Counted from the stretch's first letter, positions 1 to 57,335 are shown. The stretch: DNA of 57,335 bases from Bacteroidota bacterium (GCA_019695345.1 JAIBAE010000021.1:1-57335); one strand, 5' to 3'. A program made the numbers and translations. Notes: generated from the letters alone by a model not told the origin.

Positions 1-302
1 TTGTCCCATAGTGATTGTTACGTTGTAATTGACATTCCTCCTAATTCTTTCACAAACTTCATGCTAAATCTACTGGGGCATAACTCCTGCGTTCAACGGG
101 GGGCATAAGTCAAAGGTTCGTGACACGTGTGCTTCGGCAGAGGCGGGGCAAGTAGATACTACTTCTAATCTGTCCATTTTTAAAGAAATTTTGGAATTTT
201 ATTTGAGACTGTTTGTGTACCCCCGTGTTATTGTTGTTGCCTACGTAAGAAGGTGTTATTTTCGTACACTATACTTCAAACAACTATTAACGGAGTTCAT
301 TC

Positions 303-28344: not shown

Positions 28345-28462
28345 TCCCACTTCTGCCGAAGCATCGCTTAAGCGCGCCAACCCGGTGCGAGCCAAACGTT
28401 CAGCGTCGCAGATAATTACTCTCTCGCAAAGTAGCAAAGACGCAGAGGGTACGAATGGTGTC
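28345..28462. repeat. Family B dispersed repeat with leader segment (reverse orientation, about 115 bp)
   Basis: TTCTGCCGAAGCATCGCTTAAGCGCGCCAACCCGGTGCGAGCCAAACGTTCAGCGTCGCAGATAATTACTCTCTCGCAAAG…. This is the reverse complement of the 44363-44480 and 49054-49170 type. Confidence 0.65.
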
Positions 28463-28690
28463 TTGTTATTCTGAGCAATGTGAAGAACCTTTCGCCACTG
28501 CTTTGTCATTCTGAGCAGCGCGAAGAATCTGTTCAGGTGTGGCTACTGTATTAACGTAATTTTCGTAGCGACGCGCGATGCCTCGCGTCGAGGAAATACA
28601 CAACAGTATGGCATTGTGCACTCTGTGAATAACTCTGTGCAACTCTGTGGGAACCTCGTACAAATGTAGAGTTTTTGCGCCGCTGTAACG
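28462..28690. repeat. Cluster of short repeat modules: 2x TGTCATTCTGAGCA…GAAGAA motif, C-hairpin (GCGACGCG…CGCGTCG), D-module (3x ACTCTGTG)
   Basis: CTTGTTATTCTGAGCAATGTGAAGAACC and TGTCATTCTGAGCAGCGCGAAGAATC (reverse of GATTCTTCGCGNTGCTCAGAATGACA). CGTAGCGACGCGCGATGCCTCGCGTCGAGG (same as 48956-48995 and 56680-56715). CACTCTGTGAATAACTCTGTGCAACTCTGTGGGAACCTCG (same as 46900-46950 and 54595-54655 in reverse). Confidence 0.6.
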
Positions 28691-33861: not shown

Positions 33862-33920
33862 CCCGCTTACGCCGAAACGAAACTCAAGCGCGCCAACCCT
33901 GTGCGAACCAACCGTTTACC
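33862..33920. repeat. Family B dispersed repeat (reverse-type) at a segmental-duplication junction
   Basis: CCGCTTACGCCGAAACGAAACTCAAGCGCGCCAACCCTGTGCGAACCAACCGTTTACC. It sits exactly where homology between the truncated (33387-33860) and full-length (35758-) gene copies ends. Confidence 0.65.
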
Positions 33921-42433: not shown

Positions 42434-44095
42434 TTATCGGCTTAGCTTGTTTTGGCGTAAGGTTGCTGCAAATTGCCTGAAGTCTTCTAAGCCAAGCGTG
42501 TTTATTACATTGGCTTCGGTTAGCATTCCCTTACGGGCTATGGTTACGCCATACCACACCTCGCTTAATGTTGCGGTTTCGTGGGAATCGGGGTTAATGC
42601 CAATACGCACTCCTTTTTGTACGGCATAGGCATGCCAACGCCAATCCAAATCTAACCGGTATGGGTTCGCGTTTAGTTCTATAACCGTTCCTGTTTCTGC
42701 TGCGGCATCTATAATGCGTTCCATGTCTATTTCGTAGCCATCGCGGGCAAGTAACAAACGTCCGGTTGGGTGACCAAGTATGGTTGTGTACGGGTTACGG
42801 ATAGCCGCAATAATCCGCTCGGTTTGTTGTTCTTTGGGCAGACGGAATGCCGAGTGTACCGATGCCACTATCATATCAAAGCGTTGCAGAATCTCATCGG
42901 GGTAATCTAACGAGCCATCGGGAAGAATATCGCTTTCAATTCCTTTTAGTATAGTAATGCCCAAACCTTCGGCGTTGACTGCATCAATCTCATCGTGTTG
43001 TTGTAATACACGCTCTATGCTTAAGCCGTTTGCATAGACGGCTGTTTTGCTGTGGTCGCAAATGGCAATGTAGGTAAAGCCCAAACGTTTAGCTTCTAAC
43101 GCCATTTCTCGGACGCTGTTCATGCCGTCGCTCCAACGGGTGTGGATATGCAGCATACCGCGCATGGCCGCGGGTTCTATTAAGGCGGGTATTCCTGCTT
43201 GTTGTGCTACGGCCAGTATGCTTACGTCTTCGCGCAGTTCCGGTGTTATGTATTGCACGCCACGTTCGGCAAAAATATCTTGCTCGGTATTCTTTTGTGG
43301 CATTGCCTTAACCGTAGGTAATGCCGTAAACGCAGAAACAAAGTCATCGCTTCCCGTTGTGCGAAACAGTACATCGGCAAAGTCCCATTTGTTGGTACAA
43401 TGCACAATAATGTTCATCCCGTTCAGAACTGTTTCAATAGTATCGCCGTCGCAATCGGCTTCTAATGTTTCGGCAAGGGTGTATGGGTCTTCGCAATCGG
43501 CAACGGCAGTAATGTGGGTAACAATTTCACAGCCGCGCCGCAACTCCCCACTTGCTTCCACGCGCTCAGCACCGGCATCTAACAGTTGTTGTTCTAAAAC
43601 AGCATACACCAACCACGCTTTGTTCATGTGCATTTTGCCTTGTGCATTGTGCCATTGCTCTATGGACTGTAGTATAGATGCCTGAGTTTTTGCGCCAAAC
43701 CCTTTCAGTTCAATCAAACGGTTTTCTTTGCAGGCGTATTCAAGTTCGCCAATGCTGGTAATGTTTAGTTGTTCGTATAGTGCTTTTGCTTTTTTACCGC
43801 CAACACCGCGAAGTTCCGTCAGTTGTAAAACACCCGCCGGGATTTTACTTTTCAGGTCGTTGTATTCGGCAATGGTGCCTGTGTGTACATACTCTTTAAT
43901 TAGCTCTTGCAATCCCTTGCCAATGCCACGAATAGCAGTAAGCGAGCCATCTTCTAATGCGGTGCGCACATCCACGCCCGATTGCTCTAACGCCCGCGTA
44001 CCGTTTTTCAGCGCACTGATACGGAAGTCATTCTCACCAAGAATTTCCATCAGTAGGGCAAGTTGTTCCAGAATTGATATAAGGTTTGTATCCAT
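42434..44095 (-). CDS. polX: DNA polymerase X family protein with C-terminal PHP phosphoesterase domain
   Basis: N-terminal pol-beta-like HhH motifs (IRGIGKGLQELIKEY; LRGVGGKKAKALYEQL). PHP His cluster (GMLHIHTRWSDG … AICDHS … HS). 553 aa. Confidence 0.8.
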   Translation of the reverse strand: MDTNLISILEQLALLMEILGENDFRISALKNGTRALEQSGVDVRTALEDGSLTAIRGIGKGLQELIKEYVHTGTIAEYNDLKSKIPAGVLQLTELRGVGGKKAKALYEQLNITSIGELEYACKENRLIELKGFGAKTQASILQSIEQWHNAQGKMHMNKAWLVYAVLEQQLLDAGAERVEASGELRRGCEIVTHITAVADCEDPYTLAETLEADCDGDTIETVLNGMNIIVHCTNKWDFADVLFRTTGSDDFVSAFTALPTVKAMPQKNTEQDIFAERGVQYITPELREDVSILAVAQQAGIPALIEPAAMRGMLHIHTRWSDGMNSVREMALEAKRLGFTYIAICDHSKTAVYANGLSIERVLQQHDEIDAVNAEGLGITILKGIESDILPDGSLDYPDEILQRFDMIVASVHSAFRLPKEQQTERIIAAIRNPYTTILGHPTGRLLLARDGYEIDMERIIDAAAETGTVIELNANPYRLDLDWRWHAYAVQKGVRIGINPDSHETATLSEVWYGVTIARKGMLTEANVINTLGLEDFRQFAATLRQNKLSR

Positions 44096-44244
44096 AGGTT
44101 CATGTAGTGAATAGTTACAAGCTACAATTTACTATTTCTTTTTCTGCTGACGCATGGCCGCACCAATCAACCAACAATCAACAGCCATCATTCTGCGGAT
44201 GAGAGCCGCAGTGTTCTACCTTGCAGTTATCGTGAATAGTTTAT

Positions 44245-44480
44245 CAATATAACCGTAGGAGCGAATAGATATTCGCCCATGTGTAGATAGATGATGAATG
44301 AACATTACACAAAAACCGGTAAGATTCTTCGCGTTGCTCAGAATGACGAAGCAGCGTTTATACCCTTTGCGCCTCTGCAAACTTTGCCTCTTTGCGAGAG
44401 AGTGATTAACAGCGACGCTGAACGTGCGGTTCGCACCGGGTTGGCGCGCTTAAGGTATGCTTCGGCATAGGCGGGAAGCA
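44245..44480. repeat. Composite repeat: hairpin unit (GGAGCGAATAGATATTCGCCC), GATTCTTCGCGTTGCTCAGAATGAC motif, leader and forward family B element
   Basis: CCCTTTGCGCCTCTGCAAACTTTGCCTCTTTGCGAGAGAGTGATTAACAGCGACGCTGAACGTGCGGTTCGCACCGGGTTGGCGCGCTTAAGGTATGCTTCGGCATAGGCGGGAAGC. About 90% identical to 49010-49170. Confidence 0.65.
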
Positions 44481-44501
44481 TGATTTGTATATGAATTACA
44501 A

Positions 44502-44553
44502 TTTCACTTATTCGGATTTGCCTATCACTTACTAACCGGCAGGTATCACTTAC
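44502..44553 (+). promoter_or_regulatory. Triple direct repeat (TTTCACTTAT / TATCACTTAC / TATCACTTAC) at 21-bp phasing upstream of 44669 gene
   Basis: Repeat starts are at 44502, 44523 and 44544, and each is followed by T-rich TAA/TTCGG. The array lies about 115 bp upstream of the ATG. Confidence 0.5.
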
Positions 44554-44668
44554 TAAACAAATACCGTGTTTGATATTTGCGATTAATAGCTTGCACTATC
44601 GTTCATTTACATTTATTCACCAAACAGGCAATGCGGGGTGCCTGTTGTTTTATAATCAAGGAAATATC

Positions 44669-46264
44669 ATGATGCGATATGTTGTATTCCTACTGTTGTG
44701 TATTACCCTTTCTATTCCCGTGCATGCCCAGTTTGGCGGTATTAAAGTACCAAAAACTTCGGATGTGAAACGAGCTGTTGAGAAGGAACTTAAGGAAGAG
44801 AAAAAAGAAGAACCTAAGGAAGAAAAGTCAACCGAGAAAAAAGAAACTCCGAAAGTCGAAAAAAGTGTTGAGAAGAAAGAATCAACCACGCCATCGGAAA
44901 TGAGCGACGAGCCACCAGCACGCGGCGGTAACTCGCGCGAAAGAACTCGCGGTGGCAGAGGTGCCGAGCCGGAAGTGTTATCGGCCGACCAGCTTACACC
45001 TACTAAAATGGATTTTATTTTGATGGAAGTGTACAAGCGCGAAGTACGTTATATGTACACCGAGGAAAAATTAGCACAGCTTCAGAATTTTGACCGCGCC
45101 GCATACGATGCAAAATATGGCCCATCGGTACCACCTGTTAAAGGCCCGGAAGGCAATCATATTAAAAGTGTTAACAAAGTACTTGAGGATTACGATAATT
45201 GGTTAGAAAGCGAAAAAGTATTAGATGAGTTTGCAAACTACCGTTATAGCGAAGCGCAAAACTCCAACGCACCTGCAGATAAATTAAAAGCGTATAATCA
45301 GGTTGTTACTGCGTGTAAGATTATCCAAAAGATTTCTCCAAACAACAAACAGGTTGGTCCTAAGTTAGAAGAAGTAAAAAAGCTGATTGCCGCAGTAGAA
45401 AAAACTATGGGCGCTGCATTTACCAGCGATTACCACCGCGAGCATTTAAACCAAATGGTGTTTAGCAGTAAACCATTTAAGCCCGGCGAAGAAGCAAAAG
45501 GCGACATCCGTAAAAGCTTTAAGGCAGGCGAAACGGTGTATGCTACCATGTACTTAGGCAGAAAGGTTCGCCAGGCATCGGATTCGTATGCACAGCAACC
45601 AATTGAAATACGAATGGACGGTGGGTTAAATGGTATTGGTAATGTGTGGGTAACAACACCAATGCAGGAAAATACATTCTTACAGATTGCAATTATTCCC
45701 GGCGAAGACTGGCTAAAAGAAAACTACAAACCATACTTGGAAAACAACGAGAAGTTCTACCAAGGGTTTATGGAAAACATGGCTAAAGCACTTCCAATTA
45801 AACACGAGCTAAAAGTGAAGTTCAGCTTCCGTGCATTTAAGGCAGAAAAGTTTGAAGAAGCTTTTACGTACGATATGAGCGACGGTGCAGAAGCAATGCA
45901 GGCATTAAGCAGTAAACTTACAAGCCAAGGGTTAGCAAGTGTAAAGATTCCCGCAGCAGGAATGACCAACGCCGCATTAGAAAAAGAAATGTTGGAAATC
46001 TGCAAAAAGAAATTCTCTAACGATACCTGGTACAAAGCTGTAATTGTAAGCAAAGATTGGACGACACAGAAGAACAATCTAACTGGTGCTATTCTTGGCA
46101 GAGAAGTACTTGCCGCAGTAACCTACAAAAACTTTGGTGGCGAATGTGGTTTTGAATACATAACATTTGAACAAGAATATACCGGAGCCGGAAAGTACAG
46201 CAATACATTGCGCTTCCGTTCATCGGGCGGTGGCTCGCGCATGTCGTGCGATAACGTTAAATAA
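44669..46264 (+). CDS. Hypothetical secreted protein with a Lys/Glu-rich N-terminal region
   Basis: I chose the start at ATG 44669 (MMRYVVFLLLCITLSIPVHA signal peptide); the track's 44570 start reads through upstream repeat DNA. A KEEKKEEPKEEK low-complexity segment is present. No domain recognised. A direct-repeat array lies upstream. Confidence 0.55.
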   Translation: MMRYVVFLLLCITLSIPVHAQFGGIKVPKTSDVKRAVEKELKEEKKEEPKEEKSTEKKETPKVEKSVEKKESTTPSEMSDEPPARGGNSRERTRGGRGAEPEVLSADQLTPTKMDFILMEVYKREVRYMYTEEKLAQLQNFDRAAYDAKYGPSVPPVKGPEGNHIKSVNKVLEDYDNWLESEKVLDEFANYRYSEAQNSNAPADKLKAYNQVVTACKIIQKISPNNKQVGPKLEEVKKLIAAVEKTMGAAFTSDYHREHLNQMVFSSKPFKPGEEAKGDIRKSFKAGETVYATMYLGRKVRQASDSYAQQPIEIRMDGGLNGIGNVWVTTPMQENTFLQIAIIPGEDWLKENYKPYLENNEKFYQGFMENMAKALPIKHELKVKFSFRAFKAEKFEEAFTYDMSDGAEAMQALSSKLTSQGLASVKIPAAGMTNAALEKEMLEICKKKFSNDTWYKAVIVSKDWTTQKNNLTGAILGREVLAAVTYKNFGGECGFEYITFEQEYTGAGKYSNTLRFRSSGGGSRMSCDNVK

Positions 46265-46310
46265 CATTATATAAAGCAAAAGAAGTCGGCTGTATATTAC
46301 ATTACATATC

Positions 46311-46787
46311 ATGTACACTATGAACATACGTATAGTTATAAACCTGTGGATAGGAATTGTTGCGTTTATGCTGTGCAATTCGTGTGATAATACGAACGGA
46401 CTTGTAAATACAGCCGACCCTTTGGCATCTATCTCGTGCGATAGTATGCCCGTTGGAAAAGATAATACAACTTTGCGCATTGTTGCAATTCAGCCCAACC
46501 CAACAGGCGATGTAGATGACTTCCGTGAATCCATTGTGTTGATGAATTTCAATAAAGATATGCGCATCAACATATCAAACTACTACATCAAAAACTCCCG
46601 TGGCGACCGCTACGATTTAACTGCCGGTTTTACTACAACGTGCGAGAAAAAAATACAGATAATTTCCACCTTAGAGTTCCTAAAAAACTCGGGCGACTCG
46701 TTGTTCTTGTGTTACGGCTCCAACGATATTTACCAACGCATTGGCTACACAACCGCCACCGAAGGCGCGTATATATTTATCAAGTAG
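46311..46787 (+). CDS. Lipoprotein with a lamin-tail-domain (LTD)-like fold
   Basis: Lipobox (FMLCNSC). LRIVAIQPNPTGDVDDFRESIVLMNF resembles the LTD signature (…NP.G.D…E.i.L.N…). The 5' end shares a 19-bp stretch (TTATAAACCTGTGGATAGG) with the MITE at 12733-12775. Confidence 0.5.
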   Translation: MYTMNIRIVINLWIGIVAFMLCNSCDNTNGLVNTADPLASISCDSMPVGKDNTTLRIVAIQPNPTGDVDDFRESIVLMNFNKDMRINISNYYIKNSRGDRYDLTAGFTTTCEKKIQIISTLEFLKNSGDSLFLCYGSNDIYQRIGYTTATEGAYIFIK

Positions 46788-46807
46788 AAAATAACATTTA
46801 TGTATTC

Positions 46808-46882
46808 CCACCTCTGCCGAAGCACGCCATACTACGCCGTCACCCGGGCGGAGCCAACCGTTCAGCGTCGCAGTTAATTCTA
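46808..46882. repeat. Family B dispersed repeat (reverse orientation); left inverted boundary of FG-GAP cassette 1
   Basis: Its reverse complement GAATTAACTGCGACGCTGAACGGTTGGCTCCGCCCGGGTGACGGCG…GCTTCGGCAGAGGTGGG matches 49085-49168 at both ends. Confidence 0.65.
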
Positions 46883-46957
46883 ATCAACGCAAGGACTCTA
46901 CACGTGTGCGAGATTCCCACAGAGTTACACATAGTTGTTCACAGAGTACACAAGAAA

Positions 46958-47115
46958 GATGCTTCGCATTACTCAGAATGACAAAAAGAGATAGAACGTG
47001 TATTGTTGTTCAATATAACCGTAGGGGCGAATAGACATTCGCCCATGTAATGATTGGTGAAGATGAACTCACAATAAGGCGATAGATTCTTCGCGTTGCT
47101 CAGAATGACAATAAA
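46958..47115. repeat. Composite ~125 bp repeat, 1.3 units (motif GAT[G/T]CTTCGC…CAGAATGACA + GGGCGAATAGACATTCGCCC hairpin)
   Basis: Same unit as the tandem array at 56741-57026; near-identical to 54656-54832. Confidence 0.65.
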
Positions 47116-47304
47116 GATAATGAAGTATTACGGATATGATGTAAGAATACAGAACATAACCCCATGCTTTAGCGTGGGGAAATCAAACATAACAACATGC
47201 TCTCGGACTTTAGTCCTGAGTGGTTGCAGGGCTAAAGCCCATGCCTGCGTTAGAGGTTTCTTCTCCGCGCTAAAGCGGCGGAGTTATTGAAATACGTTGG
47301 ATTC
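47116..47304. repeat. 190-bp multi-hairpin element, copy 1 (abuts the stop codon of FG-GAP gene F1)
   Basis: Four stem-loops: CCCCATGC-TTTA-GCGTGGGG (47160-47179), CTCGGACT-TTA-GTCCTGAG (47202-47220), GCAGGGC-TAAA-GCCCATGC (47226-47244), CTCCGCGC-TAAA-GCGGCGGAG (47263-47283). Near-identical copies at 54833-55003 and 57027-57214. Confidence 0.7.
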
Positions 47305-47319
47305 TTCGCGTGGGGAAAG

Positions 47320-48870
47320 TTACTGCACAATAACACCACACACATTAAACTGTGTGCCGTTATCAATCATAATGTTGTAACGCCCTGCGGCAAGTGTTGG
47401 TGGTAATGGTTGTAACGGTATATCTGTTTCTCCTTGGTGTAAGGCACCACTCCAAAGTGTTGTAATCTTTTTACCATCCATTGCATAGAGATCAATGGTG
47501 TAGGTGCCATGTTGTTGTACTGTTACTTGTACACGGATATTATCTTGTTTTGTTAGTATGGTGTTTTGTGCTGTAATTGATATACTTGGCTGTTGTATAA
47601 GTGTATCTTGCTCTGTTACACCAACCGTTCCAACAACACCAAGATAGATGCGAAATAAACTATGTTCAGTACCATCATAAAAAACTGCAATATCGCCAAG
47701 CCCATCATGATTGACATCACCTACACTAGAAATGTTTTGTGTGTATAGTTTATCATCTGGCGTAACTGGAATTGCTTCAGGTATTTTTGCAATTGGATTT
47801 GGGTTAGTGCGTGGATCACCACCAAAACATAAATCATATCCACTGAACAATGAAATTGTGATCCAACCTGGGAACTTTAAATCCGGAATTGAAACAGGAA
47901 TCTTGTACTTAGGTGTTGTTTGGCTTCTAAACCACAACTTCTCAAAATTATCATTGTCCAAATTGTATAATGTACCTATCCATAATAAACTATGTTGTGT
48001 ATTGTTGTATAAGTGGAATGATTTAATTCCTAAAGGAAAAGATTCACTATTCCCACTACTTAAAAACTGAGTACTCAACTTTTGATATTCAACTTTAACA
48101 TTAACTCCAGATGTAATAAAGCGAATTTCCCAAATGTGTAAAGAACTGTTAGAGCGGTTGTTATCCCACGTCATGGTTATCATACGTGCTTTGCCGTTGT
48201 TGGTGTAGGCATCTATAATGCACTCCTGATATAACCCTGCATCGTTGGTGTGGGGTAAGTTAACTACTTGCATTTTGCTTAAATCTGCATTACCGAAAAT
48301 GATGCTCCCTATATTGTATTCTTTGGTGGGTTTGCTATCACTTGAAACTAGGACATCTTCTTTTCCATCATTGTCGAAATCACCCTTAAAGTATCCTACA
48401 TTAAATCCGTTTTTTCTTATATCATTATAGTACGATTTAACTTCGGGTGTATCAGGAGGAACTCCATTTTTTTTACCAACATAAAAACTACACGTACTTT
48501 GGAAATAAAAGTCTTGTATACCGTCACCATTAAAGTCACCCATTAGGTGTGCAGCTCTTGCTCCCCAATTAAACATATTTTCGGTATCACCTTTATATCT
48601 GTTATATATTGTTGGTGTGTTTGCACTGAAATAAGGTATAAAAGCATTCATCCCACCACGTGCAGTATCAAAGTTTGGAAGGTACGTCATGTTCTTACCA
48701 AAGCTGGTATTCTCCAATTCATACCACACAGGAAGTTCGGGAAGTTTGGAGTAGTCTTGTGCGTGGGTTGTGTGTGGCAGGCACAGTAGCACAAGTACAA
48801 TTGTAATAGCTTTTATAACAAGCATTGCAGGGCGGTTTCTTTTGTTAGGTAATTCTGTTGCGCCAAACAT
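47320..48870 (-). CDS. T9SS-secreted FG-GAP/integrin-alpha-like repeat protein, paralog F1
   Basis: I chose the start at MFGATELPNKRNRPAMLVIKAITIVLVLLCLPHTTHA (signal peptide); the track ORF extends 258 nt further into repeat DNA. FG-GAP-like Ca-binding loops are present (GDFNGDGIQD, GDFDNDGKEDV, GDVNHDGLGD). The C-terminal T9SS CTD is GTYTIDLYAMDGKKITTLW…NVCGVIVQ. Confidence 0.75.
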   Translation of the reverse strand: MFGATELPNKRNRPAMLVIKAITIVLVLLCLPHTTHAQDYSKLPELPVWYELENTSFGKNMTYLPNFDTARGGMNAFIPYFSANTPTIYNRYKGDTENMFNWGARAAHLMGDFNGDGIQDFYFQSTCSFYVGKKNGVPPDTPEVKSYYNDIRKNGFNVGYFKGDFDNDGKEDVLVSSDSKPTKEYNIGSIIFGNADLSKMQVVNLPHTNDAGLYQECIIDAYTNNGKARMITMTWDNNRSNSSLHIWEIRFITSGVNVKVEYQKLSTQFLSSGNSESFPLGIKSFHLYNNTQHSLLWIGTLYNLDNDNFEKLWFRSQTTPKYKIPVSIPDLKFPGWITISLFSGYDLCFGGDPRTNPNPIAKIPEAIPVTPDDKLYTQNISSVGDVNHDGLGDIAVFYDGTEHSLFRIYLGVVGTVGVTEQDTLIQQPSISITAQNTILTKQDNIRVQVTVQQHGTYTIDLYAMDGKKITTLWSGALHQGETDIPLQPLPPTLAAGRYNIMIDNGTQFNVCGVIVQ

Positions 48871-49009
48871 AGCGTTGTTGTTTCCAACCTGCAAACTTGT
48901 TTTTTTTGGTGGTGATTGAAAAAGGAGTTTTTGCAGAGTACACAATGCCTGTTTATTTTCGACGCGAGGCATCGCGTCGCTACGAAAAACTACGATTATA
49001 CAACAAGGA

Positions 49010-49170
49010 GACAGATTCTTCGCGTTGCTCAGAATGACAAGGCACCATTCGTACCCTTTGCGCCTTTGCAAACTTTTGCCTCTTTGCGAGAGAGTGATTA
49101 ACTGCGACGCTGAACGTGCGGTTCGCACCGGGTTGGCGCGCTTGAGGTTTGCTTCGGCGAAGGCGGGGAA
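49010..49170. repeat. Composite repeat: GATTCTTCGCGTTGCTCAGAATGACA motif, leader and forward family B element; right inverted boundary of FG-GAP cassette 1
   Basis: …GTACCCTTTGCGCCTTTGCAAACTTTTGCCTCTTTGCGAGAGAGTGATTAACTGCGACGCTGAACGTGCGGTTCGCACCGGGTTGGCGCGCTTGAGGTTTGCTTCGGCGAAGGCGGGGAAC. Confidence 0.65.
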
Positions 49171-49238
49171 CCATGATGTATTCTAATAACCACGTAGTAT
49201 TACGTATAATTATAAATAGGCGATTATAGATGATTTTT

Positions 49239-49290
49239 TATCACTTACGGGGTAATTTTTATCACTTATAAAGTAAATCGTATCAGTTAC
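49239..49290 (+). promoter_or_regulatory. Triple direct repeat (TATCACTTAC / TATCACTTAT / TATCAGTTAC) at 21-bp phasing upstream of the HYR adhesin gene
   Basis: Repeat starts are at 49239, 49260 and 49281. Same motif and same 21-bp spacing as at 44502-44553. The array lies about 190 bp upstream of the 49478 start. Confidence 0.5.
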
Positions 49291-49477
49291 TAAAGAGAAT
49301 GTATTTGCTGACCTACGCATACATAGTTTCGTAGTGTGGATTTGATGCAACGCGCTATTACTCGGCATTGGGGAATGTTGTTAGGCAGTTGCCACTCACA
49401 TCAACTTGACATACTACGGAGAGGGAGATTCTAAAGGATTAGACCAATTGTTTTTTGTTCACCTTTTGGAGTTTCCC

Positions 49478-52400
49478 ATGAGTTTCTTCTTTAGCCGCTA
49501 TGGTAATATGTGCGGTTTACATTTTATGTGGCACAAAGTTGCCATTGTTGCTTTCCTTTTAGTTTTAGCAGGGGTTACACCAACCTTCTCTGCTGTAAAA
49601 ACGTGGACGAACGGTGCTTCCACAGGTTTGTGGAATTCTGCTAATAACTGGTCGCCAAGCGGTGCACCAACATCATCCGATACAGTTGTTTTTGATGGTA
49701 CTTCTTCCGCTAACTGTACGCTAAACACATCGGTAACTATACAAGCATTGTTTGTTGATAATACCTACAGCGGTGTGTTTGATATGAGTTCGCAAACATT
49801 AACACTTACACATGCACTTACCATAAATGGTAGTGGTAGTTTTAATGCAAATACCGGAACTATTATCATTGCATCGGCAGTTGGGTTGTTTGATTTGATG
49901 TCCACACAAGATTTATATAATCTGGAAATAGCTTCGGGCAATACGGTAAGATATAATTTATCTGTTAGCAACGATCTTACTGTTCTTCATGATTTTACTC
50001 TAACACAAATTAACAATTTGGGATGCGGCTTCTTTTGTAACAAGCGCATAGCAGTATATGGTAACGCTACTTTTAATGATACAGACGGATGGAGTGCAAC
50101 AGGACGTGTTGCAATGGTTGGTTCAGCAAATCAGCAGGTATTAGGTAATGGAATAGCAACACAGTTTATTGTTGATAAAACAGGCGGTACGGTATCGTTA
50201 AGCAGTTTTACGGGAAGTTTTGGGTTAGTTAGCGGCGGCTATTGCAGACTTGCTTCTTCTAATCAAGGTACATTAAACATTGGCGGTATTACCGTTGATG
50301 CCTTTGTATATGATATTCAGGGCGGAACACTAGCAGGTTCGGGTACTTTAAACGGAAATGTTACATGCAGTAGTACCGGAGTTCTGTCCCCGGGTGGAAA
50401 CACTGTTGGGTGTATTACCATTAATGGCGATTTAACAATGCAATCGGGTACTACACTTCGTGTAGATGTACAAGGTACTGTTGCTTGCACTCAGTTTGAC
50501 CAAGTAGTGGTTGTTGGTGCAGTAACATTAAATAACCCCACCATTACCGGCGGTACAACATTTCAAACAATAGCACCTGTTACTATTATTGATAACGATG
50601 ATACCGATGGTATTTCCGGAACATTTAACGGTATTACGAATGGTGGCTTGGTAACACTTTCGGGTAAAAGTTATGCAGTAAACTATGATGGTGATAGTGG
50701 TAATGATGTGATTCTTACAACAAATAATCTTGCACCTGTAGCGCAGTGTGCGTGGATTGACCACGGTATTGCCAGCGAGTGTTTACCATATAACATTACG
50801 GCTTCTATGGCAAACGATGGCTCGTACGACCCCGAAGGTGGACCAATTACACTTTCCGTTAATACAACCGGTCCGTTTGGTGCTAACTTTTGGTTAGTAG
50901 ATTTAACTGTTACCGATACACTTGGTGCATCATCTATGTGTCAGGCAGTAATCAATGTATATGATACACTTGCGGCAACAATTACAACACCATGCCCTAA
51001 TACTATTGTTGTTTGTGGCGAACAAGCAGTTACATGGACTGAACCGGAAGCACTTGATGCGGGTAACTGTTTTGTTACGCGTTACAGGTCATCGAGCGCA
51101 ACAAACGGAGCTGAAGCACCGGGCGATGTATTTCCTGTTGGAGTTAATGATATTTTATATCAATGGGAAGGTGGCGGTTATCCAACTGCCTATTGTATAA
51201 TGACAATTGTTGTTCTTCCGTTACCAGATGTATCAATTTCTCAAACACAGTTAACAGGTGCATGCCAAGGGGCTAAATTACTTACAGCAGATATTGCCAA
51301 TGCCGGTTCACTGCAGGCACCAATTCAATATAACTGGACGGGAACAGCAACAGGTACAACGCAAAGCATTGCTGCTACACAAAACGGTACATACACTGTA
51401 ACCGTTACCGATGGCGGTGGTTGTACAGCAACTGCAAATGTTACACTTACCGTAGATAACACCGACCCTGTTCCAAGTGTACCAACACTTTCGGATATTA
51501 CAGCAGAATGTGGTGTTACAATTACAACAGCACCAACAGCAACCGATAATTGCGCAGGCGTAATTACAGGTACAACTTCCAACCCATTAACATATTCTGC
51601 ACAAGGTTCTTATACTATAACATGGACGTACGATGATGGTAACGGTAATGTAGTAACGCAAGATCAAGATGTTGTTATACAAGATGTAACGGCACCAGTA
51701 CCAACTGTATCTAACTTAACAACGTTAACAGGTGAGTGCTCCGTTACTGTAGCAACAGCACCAACCGCAACCGATAACTGTGCAGGAACTATAACAGGTA
51801 CAACATCCGACCCACTTACCTATACAACACAAGGTACATACACCATAACATGGTTGTATGATGATGGACACGGAAATACAACAACACAAACACAAACAGT
51901 AGTTGTAGATGATATTACCGCACCTGTGCCAAACGTATCATCGTTACCGGCAATAAAAGCACAATGCGGTATAACGGTAAGTTCATTCCCAACAGCAACC
52001 GATAATTGTGTAGGAACAGTAACCGCTACAACAAATAGTCCGCTTACATACTCGGTGCAAGGCACATATTCTATCTTATGGAAATACAACGATGGAAATG
52101 GCAACAGTGTAACGCAAACACAAGCGGTAATTATTCAGGATACAATTGCACCTGTACCAAATGTGGCAGTGTTGTCAACCGTAACGGCACAATGTTCTGC
52201 TACAGTAACAACAATACCAACCGCAACCGATAATTGCAGAGGAGTTATCCAAGCTACAACTACAAGCCCGTTAACATTTACTGCACAAGGCACACATACA
52301 ATTACATGGGTGTATAACGATGGCAACGGTAATACAACAACACAAACACAAACTGTTGTAATTAACGATAACACTCCGCCTACAATTACTACACCATGTC

Positions 52401-53896
52401 CTTCTAACATAACTGTATGTAGTGGACAAAATATAACATGGACTGAACCACAAGCAACCGATAACTGCTCCGCAGTAACCAGAACACGCTCACACGTACC
52501 GGGTTCAACATTTGCTAGCGGAACAACAACTGTTACATACACCTTTACCGATGCAAAAGGTAATAGTACATCCTGTAACTTTACCGTAACAGTAGGTGGT
52601 GGCGTTAATGTATCAATTGCTGCAACGGCATTGCCGAATTTCTGCCAAGGTGCAGCACAACTAACAGCAACTGTAATGAATGCTTCGCAAAATGCAACGT
52701 ATAGTTACTCATGGTCGGGCGGTGCCGGCAATACAAGTAGTATTACAGCATTAACCAACGGAACATATACTGTAACTGTTACAAGTAACTCCGGATGTAG
52801 CGGTACTGCAACCTATACGGTGAATAATACAATCTCGGGCTTGGTATCCGGCTATGTGTTGTTGGCTAATCAGGGAATACACATGCACCGCTCCAGAGTT
52901 CAAGGGAACATAGGTGTACGGTATGCAAACAAAAAAGCAAAAGTACACGAACACTCTGTAGTAACAGGATTTGCCAAAGCTGCCACCATTCAGGTTAATG
53001 GCAACAGTTCTGTTGGTCAGCAGATTTCAGGTCAGGTTAGTGTTACCTTGCCAACGTTTATATCTAACACCAATAATAGTAACAACAATGTTACGGTAAA
53101 TCAAAATCAAACAGTAACATTAAGCAGTACAAACTATGGTAAGATTAAAATCAAACACCATGCAACCGTAACATTCACTGCCGCTCAAATCAATATCAAA
53201 GAAATCGAAGCCGATGAAAACGCAACCATTAACTTCTCGCAAGATGCAACCGTATTAGTTAAAAATGGTGTAAGCTTAGAAGAAGATAACAACGTTAACT
53301 CATCAGGCAAACGCGTTGTGTTTTATGTTGGCGATGAGTTTGAAATTGAAGGTGGCTCTTCCTTTAAAGGAAATGTGTATGCCCAAGATGACATCGAAGC
53401 AAAAGGACACAAATCGGGCGATTGGGATTGGGACGACGACGATAACCATGGCAGTTGCGGTGGTGGTTCAACCTCCGGCGATAGCACACACATGGTTGGA
53501 ATGTTTATCAGCGCAAAACAAATCAAGTCGGGTAAATACGTATCATGGAAAAACGGTGCGGCTTGTACACCAAGTAGCGGTTTCTCTGCAAAAGCAATTG
53601 CAGAAAGCACAATCGAAACCGATGAAGATGCTCCTGCCGGAAGTCCTGTTGTAGAAGTATATCCAAACCCTGCATCCAACAATATCAACGTTGTATTAAA
53701 CGGAATGGGTAAAGTAGAAAAAACAATACGTATTACAGATGTGTTAGGAAAAACAATCTTCACAACATCAGCCGATGCATCAACAACCGAAATCAATATC
53801 AACCTGCTCAATGCTTCAATACAAAATGGTATGTATATACTTCATGTTGAAACACAAACAGGCAGATATAATACTCAATTTGTTGTAGTACAATAG
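49478..53896 (+). CDS. Giant T9SS-secreted adhesin-like protein with beta-helix-like N-terminal repeats and multiple HYR domains
   Basis: Signal peptide (MSFFFSRYGNMCGLHFMWHKVAIVAFLLVLAGVTPTFSA; starts at 49478 or 49508 are possible). At least 6 repeats of about 80 aa match the HYR pattern (ATDNCAG.ITGTTS.PLTY..QG.YTITW.Y.DGNGN…Q; C-terminal TDNCSAVTRTRSHVPGSTFASGTTTVTYTFTDAKGNSTSCNFTVTV). C-terminal T9SS CTD (VVEVYPNPASNNINVVLNG…ILHVETQTGRYNTQFVVVQ). A terminator follows. Confidence 0.8.
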   Translation: MSFFFSRYGNMCGLHFMWHKVAIVAFLLVLAGVTPTFSAVKTWTNGASTGLWNSANNWSPSGAPTSSDTVVFDGTSSANCTLNTSVTIQALFVDNTYSGVFDMSSQTLTLTHALTINGSGSFNANTGTIIIASAVGLFDLMSTQDLYNLEIASGNTVRYNLSVSNDLTVLHDFTLTQINNLGCGFFCNKRIAVYGNATFNDTDGWSATGRVAMVGSANQQVLGNGIATQFIVDKTGGTVSLSSFTGSFGLVSGGYCRLASSNQGTLNIGGITVDAFVYDIQGGTLAGSGTLNGNVTCSSTGVLSPGGNTVGCITINGDLTMQSGTTLRVDVQGTVACTQFDQVVVVGAVTLNNPTITGGTTFQTIAPVTIIDNDDTDGISGTFNGITNGGLVTLSGKSYAVNYDGDSGNDVILTTNNLAPVAQCAWIDHGIASECLPYNITASMANDGSYDPEGGPITLSVNTTGPFGANFWLVDLTVTDTLGASSMCQAVINVYDTLAATITTPCPNTIVVCGEQAVTWTEPEALDAGNCFVTRYRSSSATNGAEAPGDVFPVGVNDILYQWEGGGYPTAYCIMTIVVLPLPDVSISQTQLTGACQGAKLLTADIANAGSLQAPIQYNWTGTATGTTQSIAATQNGTYTVTVTDGGGCTATANVTLTVDNTDPVPSVPTLSDITAECGVTITTAPTATDNCAGVITGTTSNPLTYSAQGSYTITWTYDDGNGNVVTQDQDVVIQDVTAPVPTVSNLTTLTGECSVTVATAPTATDNCAGTITGTTSDPLTYTTQGTYTITWLYDDGHGNTTTQTQTVVVDDITAPVPNVSSLPAIKAQCGITVSSFPTATDNCVGTVTATTNSPLTYSVQGTYSILWKYNDGNGNSVTQTQAVIIQDTIAPVPNVAVLSTVTAQCSATVTTIPTATDNCRGVIQATTTSPLTFTAQGTHTITWVYNDGNGNTTTQTQTVVINDNTPPTITTPCPSNITVCSGQNITWTEPQATDNCSAVTRTRSHVPGSTFASGTTTVTYTFTDAKGNSTSCNFTVTVGGGVNVSIAATALPNFCQGAAQLTATVMNASQNATYSYSWSGGAGNTSSITALTNGTYTVTVTSNSGCSGTATYTVNNTISGLVSGYVLLANQGIHMHRSRVQGNIGVRYANKKAKVHEHSVVTGFAKAATIQVNGNSSVGQQISGQVSVTLPTFISNTNNSNNNVTVNQNQTVTLSSTNYGKIKIKHHATVTFTAAQINIKEIEADENATINFSQDATVLVKNGVSLEEDNNVNSSGKRVVFYVGDEFEIEGGSSFKGNVYAQDDIEAKGHKSGDWDWDDDDNHGSCGGGSTSGDSTHMVGMFISAKQIKSGKYVSWKNGAACTPSSGFSAKAIAESTIETDEDAPAGSPVVEVYPNPASNNINVVLNGMGKVEKTIRITDVLGKTIFTTSADASTTEININLLNASIQNGMYILHVETQTGRYNTQFVVVQ

Positions 53897-53934
53897 TACA
53901 ATAACAAAAGCAAATTCCCCAATCCCCCAATGGG

Positions 53935-53978
53935 GCAAGGGTTGCGATAGAAATATCGTAGCCCTTGCTTCTTTTTTA
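53935..53978 (+). terminator. Rho-independent terminator after the HYR adhesin gene
   Basis: Stem of about 15 bp (GCAAGGGTTGCGATA / TATCGTAGCCCTTGC, two G-U pairs), loop GAAA, then TTCTTTTTTAT. Confidence 0.8.
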
Positions 53979-53993
53979 TAAACAGGAGGTATA

Positions 53994-54473
53994 ATGGAAC
54001 ATAATGCTTCAATGCAACCCGATTGGGAATCGCAAGAGCTTGGATTAAACACTCGGCGTCCTCATATCCAACCCATTCCGGGCATACGCTACCAACCCGA
54101 ACCACACATCAATTCCTACGATTACCTTCAGCTTCTTTACCTAACCGGAGTAATCGAAAAATATCGTAATTCCGAAGTAGAAGTAATAACCGCCATGATA
54201 AAAAACTCATTGATAATTACTGCGCGGCAAGACGCACTATTAGTAGCTGCGGCGCGGTATGTAACCGACTACATTAACACAACATTTGTAGCCGAACTAC
54301 TTGTACGGGAAGACTTTCGCCGTGCCGGAATCGGTATGGAACTCATCAAAGAAATACATAAACTGCATCCAAACACCAACGTATGTTTTTCGCCTACGGA
54401 TATGTTCAACGAATACATCCCGCTTGGGTTAGAAGTTGTAAAGTTCAACGCAGTTCTGCCAAGCACAGTATAA
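53994..54473 (+). CDS. GNAT-family N-acetyltransferase (putative)
   Basis: GNAT motif-A-like stretch LLVREDFRRAGIGMELIKEI. 159 aa. GGAGGT SD 6 nt upstream. Confidence 0.55.
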   Translation: MEHNASMQPDWESQELGLNTRRPHIQPIPGIRYQPEPHINSYDYLQLLYLTGVIEKYRNSEVEVITAMIKNSLIITARQDALLVAAARYVTDYINTTFVAELLVREDFRRAGIGMELIKEIHKLHPNTNVCFSPTDMFNEYIPLGLEVVKFNAVLPSTV

Positions 54474-54501
54474 AGTGTACTTAGAAGAAAGTACATTGTG
54501 A

Positions 54502-54575
54502 TTCCCTCCTTTGCCGAAACGCGCCATACTGCGCCGTCACCCGGGCGGAGCCAACCGTTACAGCATCGCAGTTAA
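54502..54575. repeat. Family B dispersed repeat (reverse orientation); left boundary of FG-GAP cassette 2
   Basis: TTTGCCGAAACGCGCCATACTGCGCCGTCACCCGGGCGGAGCCAACCGTTACAGCATCGCAGTTAATTC. About 90% identical to 46808-46882. Confidence 0.65.
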
Positions 54576-54655
54576 TTCTAGTTAACGCAAAGACTCTACA
54601 CGTGTACGAGGTTCCCACAGAGTTACACAGAGTTGTTCACAGAGTACACAAAACA

Positions 54656-54832
54656 GATTCTTCGCATTACTCAGAATGACAAAAAGAGATACAACGTGTA
54701 TTGTTGTTCAATATAACTGTAGGGGCGAATAGACATTCGCCCATGTAATGATTGGTGAAGATGAACTCACAATAAGGCGATAGATTCTACGCGTTGCTCA
54801 GAATGACAAAAAGAGATAATATAGTATGACAG
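54656..54832. repeat. Composite ~125 bp repeat, about 1.4 units
   Basis: Near-identical to 46958-47115, including the GGGCGAATAGACATTCGCCC hairpin at about 54722. Confidence 0.65.
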
Positions 54833-55003
54833 ATATGATGTAAAAATGCAGAACATAACCCCATGCTTTAGCGTGGGGAAATCAAACATAACAACATGCT
54901 CTCGGACTTTAGTCCTGAGTGGTTGCAGGGCTAAAGCCCATGCCTACGTTAGAGGTTTCTACTCCGCGCTAAAGCGGCGGAGTTATTGAAATACGTTGGA
55001 TTC
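54833..55003. repeat. 190-bp multi-hairpin element, copy 2 (abuts the stop codon of FG-GAP gene F2)
   Basis: Same four TTTA/TAAA-loop hairpins as 47116-47304, with a few substitutions (GCCTACGTTAGAGGTTTCTACTCC). Confidence 0.7.
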
Positions 55004-55018
55004 TTCGTGTGGGGAAAG

Positions 55019-56587
55019 TTACTGCACAATAACACCACACACATTAAACTGAGTACCGTTATCAATCATAAGGTTGTAACGCCCTGCGGCAAGTGTTGTT
55101 GGTAATGGTGGTAACGGTATATCTGTTTCTCCTTGTTGCAAGGCACCACTCCAAAGCGTTGTTATCTTTTTACCATCCATTGCATAGAGATCAATGGTGT
55201 AGGTGCCACTATGCTCTGCCGTTGCATGAACATCTAAAGAACTGCCTTTGCTAACCACTGCATTACGTACAGAAATTGCAATGTGCTTTGTAGTTGTGTT
55301 TTGAGGTTGTTCGTTAACACCTACGTTTTTATCTATACCTAGGTAGATTGCAAACTTTGTTATACCATAGCTTACTTTCCATCCATCGTAATAGACAGCT
55401 ATATCTCCAAATCCATCGTTATTTACATCACCTACAGAAATAGCATTAGACAAAATAAGATAATCGTCACTATTGTTGTAGTATCCTAGATAGATTTTTG
55501 CGTAGGGGATTGAATCAGTGAATGGATTGCCTTTAGTAATTAGGCCAAGCCGATTGTTAAATATAGGATTTGTAATATCACTTATTGCTGTATATTCATA
55601 ATGAACTTCATTGTTAATATAGTGATGTAATATTTTATACGGTCTGCTTGAGAACGCTTTTTTATGCTCAATTAAATTTTCTTCAATTTGGTACACATCA
55701 TCTAATATGACTATTACTCTCTTATCGTTGTTTATTCCCAATAACCTTAATGGAGCATTGACTCCAACTGAGTAAGGAATAGGTTGTGAATAAACATTAT
55801 TATACTTTACTTTAAGGTCTGTTCCTGCTGTAATAAACTGTATTTCCCATAAAACAAGTTTTGCGGTTTTGAACTGGTTGTCGGCTGCAATTGTAATCAT
55901 ACGTGCTTTGCCGTTGTTGGTGTAAGCATCAATGATACACTCCTGATAAAATCCTGCGTCGTTGGTGTGGGGTAAGTTAACAACTTGCATCTTGCTTAAA
56001 TCTGCATTGCCGAAAATGATGCTACCGAGATTGTATTCTTTGGTGGGTTTGCTATCACTTGAAACTAGGACATCTTCTTTACCATCATTGTCGAAATCAC
56101 CCTTAAAGTATCCTACATTAAATCCATTTTTTCTTATATCATTATAGTACGATTTAACTTCGGGTGTATCAGGAGGAACTCCATTTTTTTTACCAACATA
56201 AAAACTACATGTACTCTGGAAATAAAAGTCTTGTATACCGTCACCATTAAAGTCACCCATTAGGTGTGCAGCTCTTGCTCCCCAATTAAACATATTTTCG
56301 GTATCACCTTTATATCTGTTATATATTGTTGGTGTGTTTGCACCGAAATAGGGTATAAAAGCATTAATCCCACCACGAGCAGTATCAAAATTAGGAAAGT
56401 AGTACATATTTTTTCCAAAGCTTGTATTCTCCAATTCATACCACACAGGAAGTTCGGGTAGTTTGGAGTAGTCTTGTGCGTGGGTTGCGTGTGGCAGGCA
56501 CAGTAGCACAAGTACAATAGTAATAGCTTTTATAACAAGCATTGCAGGGTAATTTCTTTTGGTTAGTAATTCTGTTGCGCCAAACAT
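55019..56587 (-). CDS. T9SS-secreted FG-GAP/integrin-alpha-like repeat protein, paralog F2
   Basis: I chose the start at MFGATELLTKRNYPAMLVIKAIT… (56587). The N-terminal ~225 aa and C-terminal ~60 aa are near-identical to F1, and the central ~240 aa are diverged. Confidence 0.75.
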   Translation of the reverse strand: MFGATELLTKRNYPAMLVIKAITIVLVLLCLPHATHAQDYSKLPELPVWYELENTSFGKNMYYFPNFDTARGGINAFIPYFGANTPTIYNRYKGDTENMFNWGARAAHLMGDFNGDGIQDFYFQSTCSFYVGKKNGVPPDTPEVKSYYNDIRKNGFNVGYFKGDFDNDGKEDVLVSSDSKPTKEYNLGSIIFGNADLSKMQVVNLPHTNDAGFYQECIIDAYTNNGKARMITIAADNQFKTAKLVLWEIQFITAGTDLKVKYNNVYSQPIPYSVGVNAPLRLLGINNDKRVIVILDDVYQIEENLIEHKKAFSSRPYKILHHYINNEVHYEYTAISDITNPIFNNRLGLITKGNPFTDSIPYAKIYLGYYNNSDDYLILSNAISVGDVNNDGFGDIAVYYDGWKVSYGITKFAIYLGIDKNVGVNEQPQNTTTKHIAISVRNAVVSKGSSLDVHATAEHSGTYTIDLYAMDGKKITTLWSGALQQGETDIPLPPLPTTLAAGRYNLMIDNGTQFNVCGVIVQ

Positions 56588-56740
56588 AGCGTAGTTGATT
56601 TCAACCTGCAAACTTGTTTTTTTGGTGGTGATTGAAAAGTGGTTCTCACAGAGTTATTCGCAGAGTTTACAATGCCTGTTTTTTTTCGACGCGAAGCATC
56701 GCGTCGCTACGAAAGGATGAGATTATACGATAAAGAGAGA

Positions 56741-57026
56741 GATTCTTCGCGTTGCCGAGAATGACAAGAGAGATACAACGTGAATTATTGTTGAATATAA
56801 CCGTAGGGGCGAATAGACATTCGCCCATGTATTGATTGGTGAAGATGCACTCCCAACAAAGAGATAGATTCTTCGTGCTGCCAAGAATGACAAATAGAGA
56901 TACAACGTGAATTATTGTTGAATATAACTGTAGGGGCGAATAGACATTCGCCCATGTAATGATTGGTAAAGATGAACTCACAATAAGGCGAAAGATTCTT
57001 CGCATTGCCGAGAATGACAAAAAGAG
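56741..57026. repeat. Tandem array of the composite ~126 bp repeat (2.3 units)
   Basis: Units start at 56741, 56867 and 56994. Each is GATTCTTCG[C/T]…[C/T]GAGAATGACAA + ATACAACGTGAATTATTGTTGAATATAAC + CGTAGGGGCGAATAGACATTCGCCCATG + TAATGATTGGTGAAGATG…. The units are about 90% identical. Confidence 0.75.
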
Positions 57027-57214
57027 ATAATGAAGTATTACGGATATGATGTGAGAATGTAGAACATAACCCCATGCTTTAGCGTGGGGAAATCAAACAT
57101 AACAACATGCTCTCGGACTTTAGTCCTGAGTGGTTGCAGGGCTAAAGCCCATGCCTACGTTAGAGGTTTCTTCTCCGCGCTAAAGCGGCGGAGTTATTGA
57201 AATACGTTGGATTC
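57027..57214. repeat. 190-bp multi-hairpin element, copy 3 (not adjacent to a gene)
   Basis: Identical hairpin set: CCCCATGCTTTAGCGTGGGG, CTCGGACTTTAGTCCTGAG, GCAGGGCTAAAGCCCATGC, CTCCGCGCTAAAGCGGCGGAG. Confidence 0.7.
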
Positions 57215-57240
57215 GTAATTCGTAAACAAAATGCGAAGCA

Positions 57241-57300
57241 GGTGGTGCGGTTCGCACCGGGTTGGCGCGCAGAAGGATTGCTTCGTGAGAGGTGGGAAAC
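57241..57300. repeat. Family B dispersed repeat (forward-type)
   Basis: GGTGGTGCGGTTCGCACCGGGTTGGCGCGCAGAAGGATTGCTTCGTGAGAGGTGGGAAAC. Confidence 0.6.
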
Positions 57301-57335
57301 AACTACTCTCCGGAACTGAGTATAGATAAGATGTA

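Follow-up and report, generated by a model that had tools for sequence, protein, structure and literature searches.

Introduction

Two pairings between a Y1/HUH transposase and hairpin-forming DNA have been described, namely the IS200/IS605 insertion sequences (IS) with their subterminal hairpins, and the REP-associated tyrosine transposases (RAYT, also TnpA_REP) with the repetitive extragenic palindromes (REP), the bacterial interspersed mosaic elements (BIME) and the REPINs, which are REP doublets forming hairpins (PMC3333891, PMC8266576, PMC6006769). Here we analyzed an element of four consecutive hairpins that is present three times in a 57,335-bp stretch of DNA, the complete contig of a Kapabacteria (Bacteroidota) metagenome-assembled genome (MAG), which is referred to as the window. 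The four-hairpin observation is real and far from chance. With a probability of roughly 0.8, the window element is a gene-less member of a hairpin-repeat family whose full-length form holds a Y1/HUH transposase gene, tnpA, between its modules.

Among the described Y1/HUH enzymes, those of subclass 1.2 carry the motifs DH[IV]H, WQ and YIKNQKEHH, have a mean length of 148 amino acids (aa) and a conserved C-terminal tail, occur at low copy in Cyanobacteria and Bacteroidetes, and are said to lack both IS properties and associated repeats (PMC6006769). Another layout is that of the TIRtrons, in which Y1 genes (TIRYTs) lie between long inverted repeats that bear no relation to GTAG REPs and are in some cases "double palindromic"; these repeats form moderately abundant families as dimers or clusters (PMC3733652). 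The GTAG-headed hairpins GGGCTTTAGCCC and GACAGGCTTTAGCCTGTC, which have TTTA loops, are listed among the REPs of subclasses 2.7 and 2.8 (Table S1, PMC6006769), so the GCTTTAGC-type loop is not unique to the four-hairpin family.

Results

Structure of the three copies in the window

The three copies, located at about 47116-47304, 54815-55003 and 57027-57214, shared a pairwise identity of 95.2-97.4% over 189 nt, and in the central 143 nt copy 2 and copy 3 matched copy 1 at 141 and 142 positions, respectively. The original prediction of three copies more than 95% identical was borne out by these values, as were its four hairpins, whose stems and loops were found in the sequence of every copy:

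47155-47289, plus strand: copy 1, core as defined by the family, aligned with 63 relatives from other genomes and matched by nhmmer on both strands
47155-47159: 5' foot of copy 1, CATAA
47160-47179: hairpin 1 (H1) of copy 1, CCCCATGC-TTTA-GCGTGGGG
47202-47220: hairpin 2 (H2) of copy 1, CTCGGAC-TTTA-GTCCTGAG
47226-47244: hairpin 3 (H3) of copy 1, GCAGGGC-TAAA-GCCC(A)TGC
47263-47283: hairpin 4 (H4) of copy 1, CTCCGCGC-TAAA-GCG(G)CGGAG
47284-47289: 3' foot of copy 1, TTATTG
54854-54988, plus strand: copy 2 core, with H1 at 54859-54878, H2 at 54901-54919, H3 at 54925-54943 and H4 at 54962-54982
57065-57199, plus strand: copy 3 core, with H1 at 57070-57089, H2 at 57112-57130, H3 at 57136-57154 and H4 at 57173-57193

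The loops of H1 to H4 read, in order, GCTTTAGC, ACTTTAGT, GCTAAAGC and GCTAAAGC in the window copies. The octamer GCTTTAGC/GCTAAAGC occurred 11 times in the window, compared with 1.5 expected by chance, and nine of the 11 lay inside the three copies. The symmetry of the element was nested, with H1 approximating the reverse complement of H4 and H2 that of H3; the pairing of H1 with H3 and of H2 with H4 that had been proposed earlier was wrong. The length of 190 bp had to be corrected as well, since the unit common to the relatives elsewhere, and hence the family-defined core, measured only ~135-140 nt (47155-47289 in copy 1). The other 40-50 nt were local flank and formed part of a composite block of 353 nt.

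Folding calculations supported the predicted structure in part. Each hairpin folded alone as DNA, with free energies of -3.9 to -7.8 kcal/mol, and the RNA fold of the whole unit was more stable than those of shuffled sequences (z = -4.2 and -4.6), but the minimum-free-energy fold of the whole unit was a long-range hairpin pairing H1 with H4 and H2 with H3, and not four separate stem-loops.

A hairpin-repeat family in many phyla

Relatives were searched with a pattern of the loops only, GCTTTAGC N28-40 ACTTTAGT N10-20 GCTAAAGC, in which the stems were left free; one genome was taken per species, and the estimated chance expectation was below 1. At least 113 loci in many phyla were found, often several per genome and at least 12 from one MAG. 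Among the matches listed, the carriers were Bacteroidales, Emticicia, Chryseobacterium, Flavobacterium, Chitinophagaceae and Saprospiraceae, together with Pyrinomonadaceae and other Acidobacteriota, Neomarinimicrobiota, Chlorobiaceae, Ignavibacteriales and one planctomycete. A few of the listed matches look like chance or a different element, among them some loci of proteobacteria or Nitrospiraceae and the intragenic match in Psittacicella.

The family architecture consisted of a 5' foot, usually TnnATTG, followed by H1 with an 8-bp stem and a TTTA loop closed by G-C, ~20 variable nt, H2 (GGAC-TTTA-GTCC), ~10-20 nt, H3 (GGGC-TAAA-GCCC), ~25 variable nt, H4 with an 8-bp stem and a TAAA loop, and a 3' foot CAATnnA. 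The feet read AATTG...CAATT in most lineages and YNTAA in the lineage of the window, where the window itself has CATAA. Divergent copies within one genome shared only the segment from -18 to about +111..125 relative to the H1 loop, which defines the ~135-140-nt unit; subfamilies shared longer composites of ~430 nt, as in the window. A profile search of the loci with nhmmer also detected half-elements, [H1 H2] or [H3 H4], standing alone. Several family copies were located at contig ends.

One contig of the Bacteroidales MAG MFD05442.bin.2.79 contained at least five identical tandem units of 780 nt with one four-hairpin element each, an array that reflects either tandem amplification or an assembly artefact:

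L099, 6149-7846: tandem 780-nt units
L106, 489-1406: tandem 780-nt units

All but one of the 121 elements counted (genome loci and window) lay between open reading frames (ORFs), and the overlap with an ORF at the remaining locus, L073, may be due to a spurious ORF call. The original prediction regarded the element as a terminator or stabilizer of mRNA 3' ends, or as a structured small RNA. As a cis-acting RNA of the 3' untranslated region, its hairpins would stop transcription or shield the upstream mRNA from 3' exonucleases, and a transposase would explain its arrival only. Some REPs of E. coli have been reported to protect upstream mRNA from 3' exonucleases. Such a role is in line with the position of copies 1 and 2, which start ~30 nt past the stop codons of FG-GAP genes, with the excess of convergent (21) over divergent (13) sites and with the stability of the fold relative to shuffles, and a near-symmetric element could work either way round. 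However, the orientation of the elements relative to the neighboring genes was even, with 20 co-directional and 22 anti-directional cases, and elements were also located upstream of genes and between divergent genes; few insertions in promoter regions are expected of any tolerated selfish insertion. No T-tract followed any hairpin, and a terminator scan found nothing inside the element. Rfam (Rfam 15) gave no match to the element in the window and nine family loci at gathering thresholds or even at relaxed E values, and a scan for tRNA and tmRNA found nothing. With this unbiased orientation, the lack of T-tracts and the lack of an Rfam match, a function in RNA was unsupported as the primary nature of the element and is considered unlikely; any influence that the window copies may have on the 3' ends of mRNAs would be a secondary one.

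Conservation of the hairpins

In the alignment of 64 non-redundant copies, the loops were conserved, the stems were variable and the foot was inverted. RNAalifold predicted exactly four local hairpins, and compensatory changes were observed in 15 of the 23 pairs, so that structural covariation among homologs is present. The model of four hairpins plus foot had 90.2% of the cells paired and a covariation score of 0.372, compared with 86.6% and 0.236 for the long-range model pairing H1 with H4 and H2 with H3; each score was reached by none of 500 shuffles. The two models are not independent, because H4 approximates the reverse complement of H1. The long-range fold, although favored thermodynamically, was rejected as the conserved structure, since covariation supported the local hairpins better.

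Strong covariation was seen in the outer stems, those of H1 and H4, and the flanking foot covaried too. In several lineages and in the window, the stem of H4 differed from that of H1 and yet was compensated on its own, which indicated that the hairpin is maintained and not just a repeated end sequence. The loop of H4, which had been left free in the search, was mostly GCTAAAGC, with TGAA and GAAA as variants.

Four near-palindromic sites with an invariant core might also be read in duplex DNA, as operator-like sites (GSCTWWAGSC) for a host double-stranded-DNA-binding protein, or might belong to an integron attC-like site, and the elements spaced every 780 nt in L099 and L106 have a cassette-like appearance. 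But the compensatory changes in the stems favor hairpin formation over the reading of a duplex sequence, the 780-nt units are identical and not different cassettes, and the R-boxes of attC (GTTRRRY / RYYYAAC) were not seen on inspection of the ends, no search for integrase genes near the loci having been made. Both variants of this explanation are very improbable.

A Y1/HUH transposase gene between the two halves

At a Chitinophagaceae locus (L030), a 146-aa ORF was bordered precisely by an [H1 H2] half on one side and an [H3 H4] half on the other, and homologues were placed in the same way in Emticicia (L023), a Bacteroidetes MAG (L058) and a Chlorobiaceae MAG (L033), the encoded protein (TnpA) having 140-146 aa in these four genome loci. 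The arrangement varies, as L023 carried a directly oriented module downstream of tnpA. At L033 (2070-2085), the stop codon of tnpA is the TAA of the H3 loop. At L030 (4455-4935), the gene is followed by a run of four [H3 H4]-type halves ~130 nt apart, together with short GGCAATACAAAAG tandem repeats.

TnpA belonged to the Pfam family Y1_Tnp. It passed the NCBIfam IS200/IS605 model with 64-70 bits (cut-off 55) and failed the RAYT model REP_Tyr_transpos (NF047646) with 27-29 bits (cut-off 80). The HUH histidines and the Y...Q motif were invariant in the alignment, and the nearest solved structures were the TnpA proteins of IS608 and ISDra2.

The association was tested independently on 80 metagenomic loci chosen by alignment of the TnpA protein alone. 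Significant matches to the element model were found in 76 of them, and a recognizable half lay within 100 nt on a given side in ~62%, with a median distance between half and gene of ~16 nt upstream of the ATG and ~15 nt past the stop codon. Some tnpA genes had a half on each side, and others bore full four-hairpin elements on both sides. The outer-hairpin stems within a locus shared 4.49 of 6 bases (42% identical), whereas those of different loci shared 2.78 of 6 (4% identical). At the tnpA locus L153, the flanking H1, CCCCATGCTTTAGCATGGGG, was almost identical to H1 of the window. A close relative of the L153 gene, P0003, occupied the same chromosomal site in 8 assemblies. At E <= 1e-25, 4818 TnpA clusters were obtained, and most 90%-identity clusters were seen on 1-2 contigs. 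The tnpA gene thus seems to behave as a low-copy resident gene and not as a proliferating insertion sequence.

In five metagenomic loci of one TnpA clade (L122, L123, L124, L125 and L129), the left outer stem was always CCACAGGC and the right one always CCTCCAGC. The two ends are thus distinguishable in this clade, which is an IS-like trait in an otherwise REPtron-like family.

The nature of this gene also bears on whether the element is a classical miniature inverted-repeat transposable element (MITE), with terminal inverted repeats AATTGCC...GGCAATT that are read in double-stranded DNA by a DDE transposase. The ends do form inverted repeats of ~25 nt, and a length of ~135 nt is typical of MITEs. 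Against this, the gene between the halves encodes a Y1/HUH and not a DDE enzyme, and the outer stems differ and yet are each compensated in several lineages and in the window, so that conservation applies to the structure rather than to the sequence of the ends. In addition, inspection of the flanks of the 64 copies revealed no target-site duplication, as in IS200/IS605. A DDE-mobilized MITE is accordingly highly improbable, and the element is better described as a hairpin repeat associated with a Y1/HUH enzyme.

Comparison with described systems

The resemblance to BIME and REP elements that was noted in the original prediction proved right in kind, since the hairpin modules of the element form an inverted doublet that is extragenic, occurs in multiple copies and belongs to a family linked to a Y1 gene, but the element is not a canonical REP. 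Like the elements of the REP/BIME (REPIN) type, the family consists of short extragenic imperfect palindromes in multiple copies with lineage-specific stems; as in REPINs, the elements are dispersed basically as inverted doublets, and the isolated unit prefers one long hairpin. The arrangement of a low-copy Y1/HUH gene flanked by its inverted repeats, with a conserved short sequence at the foot of the hairpin, corresponds to that of a REPtron. Unlike REPs, however, the family has no GT[AG]G foot, whose place is taken by (T)NNATTG in the majority of lineages and by CATAA in the window, and it has two hairpins per arm instead of one. The enzyme also differs from the RAYTs, which belong to class 2: it is of class 1, IS200-like, with the signature Y---Q--HH, and falls outside the RAYT model. 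The CGTC-tagged REP families (Di Nocera 2013) were considered and rejected, because they need an unpaired CGTC tag, stems starting with AT and a CCA tail; in the four-hairpin family, CGTC was part of the stem and present only in some lineages.

With IS200/IS605, the family shares the match to the TnpA model, the nearest structures (IS608 and ISDra2) and the subterminal hairpins beside the gene. The ends of canonical IS200/IS605 elements are not inverted repeats, and these elements occur in multiple near-identical copies. In the four-hairpin family, by contrast, the ends were inverted repeats in most loci, and tnpA looked low-copy, most 90%-identity clusters being seen on 1-2 contigs, and was at a fixed site in the 8 assemblies, which sets the element apart from a canonical IS200/IS605 derivative. 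TIRtrons, compared by description only, resemble the family in layout, but the motif GGGGWSAS given for them is not that of the four-hairpin family (PMC3733652).

The partner TnpA, compared by motif only, agreed with subclass 1.2 in Y---Q--HH, DH[IV]H, WQ, length, C-terminal tail, low copy number and occurrence in Bacteroidetes. Unlike subclass 1.2 as described, its genes had two-hairpin modules beside them in 76 of the 80 loci, gene-less doublets were abundant, and the family extended well beyond Cyanobacteria and Bacteroidetes. In a literature search that was incomplete, no paper describing the element was found, including those on RAYT/REPIN in Bacteroidetes and on subclass 1.2, and the loop octamers were encountered only in primers and unrelated sequences.

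Surroundings and history of the window copies

The copies were embedded in larger repeats next to genes of FG-GAP repeat proteins. Gene calls were taken from L001 (Candidatus Kapaibacterium GCA_046329015.1), a 3.28-Mb contig of this genome being 99.4% identical over window positions 43994-56777:

46953-47304, plus strand: composite 353-nt block with copy 1, composed of module B, module C (a GTAG REP), module B, a spacer and the four-hairpin element
47320-48972, minus strand: FG-GAP repeat protein gene 1 (Pfam FG-GAP; gene call in L001)
55019-56587, minus strand: FG-GAP repeat protein gene 2, paralogue of gene 1 (Pfam; gene call in L001)
57303-57335, minus strand: 3' end of an ORF running off the contig end (translation ...YILSILSSGE, then stop)

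A distance of ~30 nt separated the stop codon of FG-GAP gene 1 from the 3' foot of copy 1, and likewise the stop codon of gene 2 from copy 2. By self-BLAST, the composite block was found again at 54651-55003 and 56862-57214 with 93-94% identity. Copies 1 and 2 are not independent, because both belong to a segmental duplication of ~2.2 kb in which the FG-GAP genes are also contained, with 46804-47509 corresponding to 54501-55208 (94.5%) and 48173-49041 to 55890-56768 (91.5%). The duplication (46804-49041 versus 54501-56768) ends within repeat modules.

In the extreme case, there would be no discrete element at all, and the three copies would be by-products of the duplication of the FG-GAP region, with copies 1 and 2 inside the 2.2-kb duplication and copy 3 sharing the 353-nt block. 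But the same architecture with sharp common boundaries was present in the at least 113 loci of unrelated genomes, and the core was 99% identical between the window copies, compared with 91-94% for the duplicated DNA around it. The chance that this explanation is correct is practically negligible.

On one side of copy 3, a minus-strand ORF terminated ~100 nt away (stop codon 57303-57305), and the contig ended ~120 nt past the copy; on the opposite side, the start of FG-GAP gene 2 was ~440 nt away. Copy 3 therefore does have an adjacent gene, contrary to what had been assumed, and as evidence that the element is independent of the FG-GAP genes it is weak; this independence is amply confirmed by the copies in other phyla.

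Copies 1 and 2 were kept at orthologous sites in L001 and in L208 (GCA_044230155.1), as was copy 1 in L209 (GCA_016788765.1), these genomes being 96-99% identical. Copy 3, with ~430 nt of accompanying modules, was present only in the strain of the window in comparison with L001 and L208, where the block 56778-57210 corresponded to ~110 nt made up of module B, a short unrelated stretch and module B (12775-12884 in L001, 10768-10877 in L208). Elsewhere L001 and L208 were 98-99% identical, and the gene beyond the copy 3 block also differed at its 3' end. Since strains differ throughout this intergenic region and in the gene that follows it, copy 3 owes its polymorphism to a mosaic replacement; a clean insertion with a transposition footprint was rejected as the explanation. 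In L209, FG-GAP gene 1 was absent, and the breakpoint (2393-2401 in L209) was ~15 nt from the edge of the block carrying the element; there the element was directly followed by a module A repeat, the same as at copy 3.

The window copies look old and stable, two of them having come with the FG-GAP gene duplication and the third lying in a strain-variable intergenic mosaic. The 99% identity of the cores, the breakpoints and the differences between strains suggest that the intergenic repeat mosaic is a recombination substrate around the surface-protein (FG-GAP) genes, and the chief visible effect of the three copies looks to be that of substrates and landmarks for recombination.

Other repeats and features of the contig

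Module C was represented by five copies of a canonical GTAG-headed REP, GTAGGGGCGAATAGACATTCGCCC, at 44255-44278, 47021-47044, 54719-54742, 56803-56826 and 56930-56953. It is almost equal to the REP GTAGGGGCGAATTGAATTCGCCC of the subclass 2.4 TnpA_REP of Cytophaga hutchinsonii (Table S1, PMC6006769), which means that the genome hosts a second, classical REP family.

Module B, a 25-nt imperfect palindrome GATTCTTCGCGTTGCTCAGAATGAC, occurred in eleven copies, compared with 0.01 expected by chance, and bracketed the other modules. A truncated module B (GGATTCTTCGCG) formed the right edge of the block carrying copies 1 and 2. Module A was a repeat of 75-93 nt containing GCGGTTCGCACCGGGTTGGCGCGC...GCTTCGGC, with at least seven copies across the whole contig, often 100-250 nt upstream of plus-strand genes; it had no Rfam match and might serve as a promoter or leader, or be a further mobile module.

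28465-28529, 44323-44347, 46958-46982, 47085-47109, 49014-49038, 54656-54680, 54783-54807, 56741-56765, 56867-56891, 56994-57018: module B
4813-4836, 23802-23825, 28372-28395, 33888-33911, 44383-44475, 49075-49167, 57204-57296: module A
near 16325, 28614, 31477, 46805 and 54501: diverged copies of module A

Four to five tandem 228-nt repeats (65-70% identical) at 51500-52411 were coding domain repeats in the gene of an HYR-domain protein (1472-1496 aa) sorted by the type IX secretion system (T9SS). Between this HYR gene and a GNAT gene, a sub-threshold match to the molybdenum/tungsten cofactor (Moco/Tuco) riboswitch was observed at 53864-54002 (23.9 bits against a gathering threshold of 36, E = 0.056), and it is probably due to chance.

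Discussion

In the organization proposed here, the family unit would consist of two inverted two-hairpin modules, [foot-H1-H2] and [H3-H4-foot], and the full-length form would hold an IS200-like Y1/HUH gene of the subclass 1.2 type between both. The ~135-nt element of the window would then be a relic of mobile DNA, with both modules joined without the gene, related to the full-length form as REPIN/BIME elements are to RAYTs, or as MITEs and palindrome-associated transposable elements (PATE) are to IS200/IS605. By analogy with IS608/ISDra2 and the TnpA_REP of E. coli, TnpA would bind the hairpins, through their TTTA loops and the foot, in single-stranded DNA such as the lagging-strand template, and would cleave and rejoin the DNA beside the hairpin foot. 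Such cleavage and rejoining may generate, disperse or maintain the gene-less doublets.

Several points weigh against this interpretation. The loops of H1 to H3 were fixed by the search pattern, so their invariance is partly by construction, and covariation cannot fully separate base pairing from symmetric recognition by a protein, because H4 approximates the reverse complement of H1. The mechanism is extrapolated across subfamilies, since the ends are inverted, unlike those of IS200/IS605, and the foot is not GTAG, unlike that of REPs. No tnpA was found in the 57-kb window by tblastn, so the window copies may be orphans. Copies 1 and 2 occupy orthologous sites in the related genomes and so give no sign of recent mobility, and the strain comparison contained no clean pair of insertion and empty site.

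The pairing of a Y1/HUH enzyme with a hairpin repeat is known in kind, and what is added here is a candidate cognate DNA for an enzyme branch described as having none. More tentatively, at somewhat less than even odds, the Y1/HUH proteins of subclass 1.2 could be the hub of an undescribed REPtron-like system across phyla. The cognate DNA of this system would then be a module of two hairpins, with C(TTTA)G loops and a foot of the AATTG type, which is spread in the form of four-hairpin doublets. The system would be a third Y1-repeat partnership beside IS200/IS605 and RAYT/REP.

For annotation, the four-hairpin motif should be labeled a repeat, rather than a small RNA or a riboswitch candidate. 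The element may explain recurrent contig breaks in metagenome-assembled genomes, and in Kapabacteria it marks the borders of structural variation in the genes of FG-GAP surface proteins. A large orphan branch of HUH enzymes, reported without IS or REP features, is given a concrete candidate DNA partner or substrate. To our knowledge, biology of the REP/BIME type has been studied almost entirely in Proteobacteria, and it is extended here to Bacteroidota, Acidobacteriota, Chlorobi/Ignavibacteria and Marinimicrobia. On the more tentative reading given above, the system around subclass 1.2 might have been domesticated and might influence the layout of intergenic regions and the duplication of genes in Bacteroidota and neighboring groups.

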